Part shown: one piece after another, positions 41,646 through 43,404 of the stretch
How the letters are laid out: every line of letters starts with the position of its first letter
Numbering within the stretch: the stretch's first letter is position 1
Source of the DNA: Promethearchaeota archaeon Loki_b32
GTDB lineage: Archaea; Asgardarchaeota; Lokiarchaeia; Sigyniarchaeales; SOKP01
Assembly: GCA_005223125.1 (NCBI GenBank)
Contig: NJBH01000007.1
Span: forward strand, 85,097-149,096
DNA length: 64,000 nucleotides
Direction of reading: 5' to 3'
Position numbers and translations under genes: made by a program
The notes under the pieces: model-generated
Database searches by the model: none
What the model was told of the DNA's origin: nothing
Seen by the model: only the letters and a program-made list of their open reading frames with translations

Positions 41646-42086
41646 TTATTGAGATATTATACAGATACTACTGTAATTTTGTGTATTCTCTAAAATATCA
41701 TTATAGGTTTCTAAAATGTTCTTTCCTTTAGTATCTTTGAGGTGAGTATTAAAAGGCCAAACTCCTATGATGATATCTCCTAATTTCTTAATATTACCTA
41801 TCAAATACCCCCTTTTTTCCTCATCTGGTTTAAGTGAAAACAAGATTACCAGATAATAATTATATGTATAATCAACCAACGGATTTCCAATGATGAGAAC
41901 TTCTTCAATATTTTGAAAATTTAATATATCTTGATTTGTTTCGCTTAATTTTTTCAATTCTAAAATAGACTTTGCAGAAATGGATAAAGGTTTTTCAAAA
42001 TTTAGATTTTTAAAACTTAAAGTAAGGTTTTTATTTTCAAATCGCTCCTGTGCTTTAAAAATTACTTTAAAAATAATAGAATCCAT
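41646..42086 (-). CDS. Hypothetical protein
   Basis: 146-aa ORF downstream of aIF1 on the same strand; no recognised motif. Confidence 0.65.
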   Translation of the reverse strand: MDSIIFKVIFKAQERFENKNLTLSFKNLNFEKPLSISAKSILELKKLSETNQDILNFQNIEEVLIIGNPLVDYTYNYYLVILFSLKPDEEKRGYLIGNIKKLGDIIIGVWPFNTHLKDTKGKNILETYNDILENTQNYSSICIISQ

Positions 42087-42189: not shown

Positions 42190-42504
42190 TTATTGGATAA
42201 GAATATTTTCTTCAGGGAATCCTAGGTCGATTAAGAACTTTTTCATTTTAAAACGATGATCTCCTTGAAGTTCAACTTCATTATTTCTTACAGTTCCTCC
42301 AGAAGCACACTTTTTTTTTGCTTTTGTCAATATATTCTTTAGATTTACATCGAAATTACCAACGAATGTAATAACAGTAACAACACGCCCCCATTTCCTT
42401 CTATCATTAGAAATTACTATTTGTTGTTCATCGGCACTTAAACTATCACATATACATAGTTCTTTTGGAAAACTACATATAGGACAAATGTCGTCGTTTT
42501 TAAT
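42190..42504 (-). CDS. sui1: Translation initiation factor aIF1 (SUI1), 104 aa, apparent ATT start; missed by the ORF track
   Basis: (I/M)KNDDICPICSFPKELCICD...RRKWGRVVTVI...KKKCASGGTV..NEVELQGDHR..MKKFL..LGFPEENI; in-frame TAA at 42511-42513 rules out an upstream AUG. Confidence 0.93.
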   Translation of the reverse strand: MKNDDICPICSFPKELCICDSLSADEQQIVISNDRRKWGRVVTVITFVGNFDVNLKNILTKAKKKCASGGTVRNNEVELQGDHRFKMKKFLIDLGFPEENILIQ

Positions 42505-42876
42505 ACTCTCTTATCACAACCTTTATTGTAAATCTTTTAAAAATTTAGATCTAAAAAATAATAGAATTAAATCTTATAAAAATCTTTTTTATTTTGGAAA
42601 TAAACTTTTATAAAAATAATACTTTTTCAATTTGCTAGTTTCTTCATTGCAAAGTTATAGGATTTCAAAACCTTAAATTACGGTAAATGGAAATTTAATG
42701 ACTTAAATGAAAGTTTTTCTTAATTACTAATTTCTATCAAATTTAAATTAGTTTTTAGCCTATATTTTCCAAAATTTAGAATTGACCTTCCTAAACAAAA
42801 AATATTTAAAGAAAAATTTTTATTATTTATCAATAAGCTTATTCTTTATGTTAGAATTTTTATGTGATTCATTAAA

Positions 42877-43404
42877 ATGCAGAGCTCATGGATTTTTAAA
42901 GTAATTGTCGCGGGTGCAGGCGGTGTAGGAAAAACTGCGATGATTACGAGGTATTGTACGGGAAAATTCGAGGAGGGTTATAAAATGACAATTGGAGCAG
43001 GATTTCATACAAAATCTGAAGTGCTCGATACTGGAGAAGCCGTTAAAATGCAACTATGGGATTTTGCTGGCGAAAAACGATTCCGAGAACTCTTACCAGA
43101 TTATTGTAAAGGTGCTAGTGGGGGTTTTATATGTTTTGATATTAGTGATTATGATACTTTTAGAGAAATACCTGAATGGTTAAAGATTATTCGTCAAAAA
43201 GCCGGTTTTGTCCCCATCATTCTTATGGGAATGAAATGGGATCTTTCAGATCATGAAGTTGACTTTAATATCGCAAATGATTATGCTGCTAATGCAAAAT
43301 GTAATCAATGTGTATTCTGCTCCTCAAAAGATGATATAAATATAAATGAATCTTTTCAAGCTATGTCAAAATGGCTGATTTATTACGCCGCTCAATCTGA
43401 TTGA
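42877..43404 (+). CDS. Small Ras/Rab-like GTPase
   Basis: G1 GAGGVGKT, G2 YKMTIG, G3 WDFAGE, G4 MKWD, G5 CSSK; no prenylation motif. Confidence 0.92.
   Translation: MQSSWIFKVIVAGAGGVGKTAMITRYCTGKFEEGYKMTIGAGFHTKSEVLDTGEAVKMQLWDFAGEKRFRELLPDYCKGASGGFICFDISDYDTFREIPEWLKIIRQKAGFVPIILMGMKWDLSDHEVDFNIANDYAANAKCNQCVFCSSKDDININESFQAMSKWLIYYAAQSD

Follow-up and report, generated by a model that had tools for sequence, protein, structure and literature searches.

Self-control of an initiation fidelity factor through a weak start of its own gene is already known from bacteria (IF3) and from eukaryotes (eIF1). Bacterial infC, which encodes IF3, has an AUU start, and its translation is under autocontrol (Butler et al. 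1987, as cited in PMC4705826), and in S. aureus the same gene starts at AUA with an extended Shine-Dalgarno (SD) sequence (PMC13009471). S. aureus cvfC1, ccpN, and citZ likewise have SD-assisted noncanonical starts, with the extended SD compensating for AUU or AUA (PMC13009471). Eukaryotic eIF1 (SUI1) autoregulates via the poor context of its AUG (PMC4705826, PMC6237735). Among archaeal factors, S. solfataricus and P. abyssi aIF1 bind the 30S subunit and destabilize non-AUG initiation complexes (PMC4705826, PMC6237735); S. solfataricus aIF1 discriminates against an AUU mRNA (PMC4705826), and tRNA accommodation is impaired by aIF1 (PMC6237735). For the M. jannaschii and P. abyssi genes, neither a noncanonical start nor autoregulation is reported in the literature covered here, and our incomplete coverage of the searchable literature returned nothing specific on autoregulation or an AUU start of an archaeal aIF1.

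The window (the whole stretch of 64,000 nucleotides that we analysed) carries an aIF1 gene that can be set beside each of these systems. It resembles infC in that the gene of a fidelity factor appears to start at a conserved AUH codon behind an SD, with no canonical alternative. In contrast to infC, its product has the SUI1 fold and is unrelated to IF3 (Pfam and NCBIfam profiles found no IF3 match), the feedback proven for infC is here a proposal, and AUH starts are common to dozens of genes. With eukaryotic eIF1 it shares a homologous protein, a weak start site of its own, and the same predicted negative loop; however, in eukaryotes, where ribosomes scan, the start remains AUG and only its context is weakened, whereas the archaeal gene would use an SD-guided near-cognate codon, and what we found is an SD-led AUU and no AUG, rather than an AUG in a poor Kozak context. 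As in cvfC1, ccpN, and citZ, an extended SD would offset AUU or AUA at a conserved site, but those genes do not encode fidelity factors, and S. aureus has four such genes versus tens here. The aIF1 site works like infC at most; it is neither an infC nor an eIF1 poor-context system.

Titles of close relatives are mostly Promethearchaeota or Promethearchaeia, i.e., Loki-type Asgard archaea. On the minus strand, the 5′ end of the gene reads AGG TTG TGA TAA GAG AGT ATT AAA AAC GAC GAC ATT TGT, which confirmed the intact frame and the codon string given in an earlier note on this DNA (Table 1). Read from ATT, the frame matches Pfam SUI1 (3.6e-18; PF01253, 66.2 bits versus a cut-off of 25.5) and passes NCBIfam NF002096 (115.4 bits versus a cut-off of 98, model positions 2 to 101 of 102); it missed the TIGR01158 cut-off (82 versus 111.65). 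M. jannaschii aIF1 (4mo0) aligns with residues 5 to 103 of the ATT-started product at 5e-25. Like the M. jannaschii and P. abyssi proteins (PMC6237735), it has a SUI1 domain, a four-Cys knuckle, a basic loop 1 (here RRKWG), and a full-length match. The four Cys residues of this putative zinc knuckle are in register with the N-terminal CX2CGLPX3C-phi-C motif of 64% of archaeal aIF1 (PMC6237735), with SF replacing GL. Judged by its sequence, the protein belongs to the aIF1 family. A whole-genome search recovered it as the only SUI1 gene, and we thus rejected its replacement by a second one in this genome. The gene is flanked by a divergent Ras/Rab-like GTPase gene (42877 to 43404, plus strand) and a 146-aa open reading frame (ORF) without a Pfam match (41646 to 42086, minus strand). 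The same gene order recurs throughout the genus and in several genera, and both neighbors have an ATG start in almost every relative; the GTPase gene has an ATA start in two g16 relatives.

Table 1. Features of the aIF1 locus and of the 16S rRNA gene end, in window coordinates
Feature	Position	Strand	Basis or remark
aIF1/SUI1 coding sequence, 104 codons + TAA, ATT-started	42190..42504	-	Pfam, NCBIfam, structure-sequence match
Predicted AUU start codon	42502..42504	-	ATT/ATC in orthologs; same in second contig
In-frame stops TGA TAA, 5′ of the start	42511..42516	-	Sequence reading
First in-frame canonical codon, TTG (Leu59), chosen by gene callers	42328..42330	-	Frame reading
Four-Cys putative zinc-knuckle motif (C7, C10, C17, C19)	42448..42486	-	5′ of every canonical start
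Codons 3-5, AAC GAC GAC here (GAC GAC in most orthologs)	42490..42498	-	Avoid an out-of-frame AUG beside the AUU
Out-of-frame 5-codon mini-ORF GTG..TAA, probably incidental	42500..42517	-	GTG inside SD core
Bipartite SD-like element AGG-UU-GUGAU	42513..42522	-	Duplex with 16S tail; conservation
16S rRNA gene 3′ tail (anti-SD)	63605..63614	-	Sequence GGATCACCTCC; right end of window
Conserved BRE/TATA-like promoter	42573..42590	-	Invariant TTTTATAAG block, 16 aligned orthologs, 4 genera

The note had further held that no ATG, GTG, or TTG precedes the conserved N terminus and that gene callers would miss or truncate the gene. Both points hold: the first in-frame canonical codon is the TTG at Leu59, and a start there gives 46 aa that lack both the Cys knuckle and loop 1, a product that is present in NCBI/ENA and whose cluster is also in IMG. 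A contig from another study (record 16, run X5) bridges the ATT site with four differences and leaves ATT untouched. In the one RNA run compared, no contig spans the start, an absence that carries no weight either way. Three other starts were tried and rejected: one at the usual 6-nt spacer, where the codons vary (AGT, AGC, AAC, CGT, CCT, AAA); one at the second ATT before Cys7, which is 24 or more nt from the SD and varies among ATT, ATC, and ATA; and a leaderless one at the GUG, from which a conserved TATA lies ~55 nt further upstream. We consider it very likely that translation begins at the first AUU.

SDs are rare in Lokiarchaea (PMC12993045), and 152 of the 1217 starts in this genome are SD led. 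The element preceding the ATT pairs with the genome's own 16S tail, found in the window as the note had proposed, in a duplex of -9.3 kcal/mol that beats 94.6% of the 1217 unambiguous starts (top 5.4%); seven of nine SD-element columns have no parsimony changes. The ATT follows GTGAT (42517 to 42513) by 8 nt, as had been claimed, and the same spacing recurs at the GTPase gene (GTGAT at 42864 to 42868, 8 nt, ATG at 42877), with the correction that the 9-nt gap from GTGA to ATT reaches the upper limit of the range in this genome, where canonical starts lie 4 to 9 nt from GTGA with a mode of 6. In most congeners, the GTPase gene also has an in-frame ATG-TGA start-stop 9 nt 5′ of its ATG (42862 to 42867 of the window, plus strand), which overlaps its own GTGAT and reads ATG TAA in one relative (L010). 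Archaeal promoters keep a general spacing to the transcription start, and by this rule the BRE/TATA-like element predicts a transcription start near 42552 to 42550 and a leader of ~47 nt. A sigma-70 promoter scan, a method unsuited to archaea, gave no result. An alifold search for conserved RNA structure over the SD in 59 distinct sequences returned no pairs; two weak 5-bp helices could form there, essentially without compensatory change.

We sampled aIF1 loci from the genus, family, order, and phylum and read the codons 5′ of the first Cys, excluding from the tallies L023 (N gap), L177 (no Cys motif), and L343, L349, L407, L412, L473, L489, and L500 (gap, paralog, or no match). Among 67 family orthologs (at least 78% identity, six genera), 64 have ATT as the start codon and 3 have ATC, and AGGTTGTGA precedes it in 64 of the 67. 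None of the 89 family loci has ATG; 79 are without any canonical codon, and in the other 10 the only one is a GTG doubling as the SD core. On a 66-taxon tree, the third base of the start codon changed once, whereas each of the 13 fourfold sites compared changed 9 to 19 times; G arose one or more times in every one of the 12 non-G fourfold columns. This statistic is moderate when taken alone, because early codons are also synonymously slow (Cys7, Cys10, Phe12, and Cys17, one to two changes each) and T-to-G gains average two to three per site; kin among the compared orthologs are not independent. A second pattern lies just downstream of the start: Asp codons 3 and 4 before G are GAC in 60/61 and 56/57 cases (116/118), against 82 to 89% GAT for Asp before G genome-wide and GAT in 49/62 and 47/55 cases at Asp25 and Asp52 of aIF1 itself. 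GAT at codons 3 and 4 would make an out-of-frame AUG near the AUU; at Asp codon 5, where it makes none, GAC and GAT usage is mixed. The use of GAC against this bias suggests to us that initiation takes place here and that an AUG close by would be preferred. Comparison within the family supports a weak start conserved beyond neutral expectation, and these patterns make it likely that the start is under selection for weakness.

Several family genomes depart from the single-copy arrangement. A second, divergent aIF1 copy of ~60% identity occurs at L132, L133, L165, L167, L294 to L296, and L177/L299; four of these copies form one clade, in which the start is an ATT or ATA after GAGGTG, or else the in-frame GTG. 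The only close ortholog with GAT GAT at codons 3 and 4, and with two out-of-frame AUGs, is L131 from genome G088, which also has a second aIF1 copy; this is a single case. In genome G006, aIF1 is split over two assembly places beside an N gap (L023 and L180), a likely misassembly, and its 5′ piece has the usual ATT.

When tabulated across the phylum, the absence of ATG stands for the window's family and does not extend to Asgard archaea at large: in a sample of 21 families, ATG occurs at some or all aIF1 loci of 12, and loci without a canonical codon occur in 7. The weak codons are ATT, ATC, and ATA in the window's family, ATA in f11, f17, and parts of f2 and f16, and CTG in f6 and part of f9. 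The partner factor aIF1A has a canonical start in all 59 complete loci read. In f9, aIF1A (L444 to L460) is mostly TTG-started; hence, the GTG and TTG starts of f9 aIF1 are not unusual, whereas its CTG starts are. Five non-Asgard (DPANN-type) aIF1 loci start at ATG. On a poorly resolved protein tree of 143 aIF1 sequences (102 columns), the label "no canonical codon" needs 13 changes, four of them forced by well-supported branches, and the tree is too weak for direction to separate gain from loss of the weak start. That the weak codons differ from family to family is consistent with a weak start having been selected more than once. Conversely, an autoregulatory loop would be dispensable, given the 12 families with ATG; as many Asgard families have a plain ATG, the likeness to the eukaryotic eIF1 loop need not mean continuity with it.

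An AUU does not by itself single out aIF1, because near-cognate starts are common in this genome. A genome-wide scan (G000; loci L306 to L325 and L485) gave 37 coding-like ORFs in which an SD lies close to the 5′ end and 35 or more codons precede any canonical one. In 26 of them, ATT, ATC, ATA, CTG, or ACG lies 4 to 10 nt behind the SD (at 5 to 7 nt in 20 of the 26); ATT makes up 17 of 84 codons behind the SD versus 3 of 86 further down. A Pfam domain starts 5′ of the first canonical codon in 12 of 20 ORFs tested, uL16 included. With an SD match of at least 5 and no canonical codon in range, a near-cognate codon is present in 112 of 189 ORFs, versus 25 to 45% with shuffled motifs, and from this excess we estimate that ~50 genes have SD-guided near-cognate starts. 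They include the genes for uL16 (ATC), eS26 (ATT), rubrerythrin, an HdrC-like Fe-S protein (ACG), an AN1 zinc finger protein (CTG), and a DUF134 protein (ATA). Since ribosomal proteins are among them, AUU may be only mildly weak. ATG is found in relatives of uL16 (22/26), the Fe-S protein (25/28), the AN1 protein (6/29), eS26 (8/28), and an aminotransferase (4/30); aIF1 is the only one of the six genes compared in which it is found nowhere in the family (0/89).

We consider it on balance probable, by analogy with IF3, that aIF1 limits its own synthesis via AUU through negative feedback. A functional single-copy aIF1 would be read from AUU on a leadered mRNA (predicted leader, ~47 nt), to which the strong bipartite SD would recruit the 30S subunit. 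With the AUU 9 nt after GUGA, the initiation complex would have to tolerate a near-cognate codon at an unfavorable distance; in a P. abyssi model, a long distance between SD and start lowers initiation (PMC6237735). Complexes at AUU would be destabilized by aIF1, so that more aIF1 would mean less aIF1 synthesis, and the feedback would set start-codon stringency, akin to E. coli infC and eukaryotic eIF1. Counting against the loop, aIF1 also promotes the binding of mRNA where the SD is strong (PMC6237735).

The alternative that survives best, which we nonetheless regard as unlikely, is a fixed dosage without feedback, in which a relaxed lineage tolerates AUU and keeps it for a low level of aIF1 or by inertia. 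The many SD-guided AUH, CUG, and ACG starts of the genome and the swaps from ATG to ATH at homologous positions speak for it, as does the aminotransferase, which retains ATH in 26 of 30 relatives and thus shows prolonged conservation in a nonfidelity gene; in S. aureus, noncanonical starts simply reduce output (PMC13009471). Against it are the standing of aIF1 as the sole gene of the six without a family ATG, the recurrence of other weak aIF1 codons in other families while aIF1A stays canonical, and the consideration that feedback follows almost automatically if aIF1 discriminates against AUU at all. Quite improbable is control by a micro-ORF, either the out-of-frame GUG..UAA or an in-frame UUG-UGA, that passes the ribosome to AUU through reinitiation or competes with it. 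The mini-ORF described in the earlier note is present, and keeps five codons in 62 of the 67 orthologs; its stop takes in the third base of the ATT and could thereby explain the conservation of that base, the divergent GTPase gene shows a similar in-frame ATG-TGA in most congeners, and, SDs being rare in this lineage, it could initiate without one. However, the GUGA core of the SD requires its GTG, it has no SD of its own at a usable distance, the predicted leader is 47 nt long, and it is longer or shorter in five orthologs (14 codons in the three ATC genes, 2 to 3 in two others) and absent where the spacing brings the GTG in frame, so that a role for it is not supported; for UUG-UGA, two of three motif changes abolish the UUG (TAG, TCG). 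The mini-ORF is probably a by-product. Artifact or decay (a sequencing error, a pseudogene, or a true 46-aa protein from TTG 42330) is scarcely credible, for although the 46-aa product appears in gene calls, the agreement of the other study's contig and the ATT of 64 orthologs rule out a sequencing error, the knuckle and loop 1 upstream of that TTG are 88 to 98% conserved within the genus, and the gene is single copy.

Building on autoregulation via AUU, we tentatively raise a further possibility, in itself rather doubtful: that in this Lokiarchaeia family aIF1 provides the set-point for a stringency circuit spanning the genome, which would be the archaeal equivalent, in the sister group of eukaryotes, of the stringency loop of eIF1. 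Here, aIF1 would throttle itself via the least favorable site (AUU, a 9-nt spacer, and AUG-free surroundings), low stringency would spare tens of genes with AUH, CUG, or ACG starts (uL16, eS26, Fe-S, and redox proteins), and the output of near-cognate-started genes would move with the aIF1 level. Whatever the mechanism, databases carry a 46-aa aIF1 stub, and tens of other genes in this lineage are truncated for the same reason. If the autoregulatory reading is true, existing in vitro systems for archaeal initiation would gain a natural mRNA, and such autoregulation would extend to the third domain of life, in the lineage nearest to eukaryotes and in the very homolog of eIF1.
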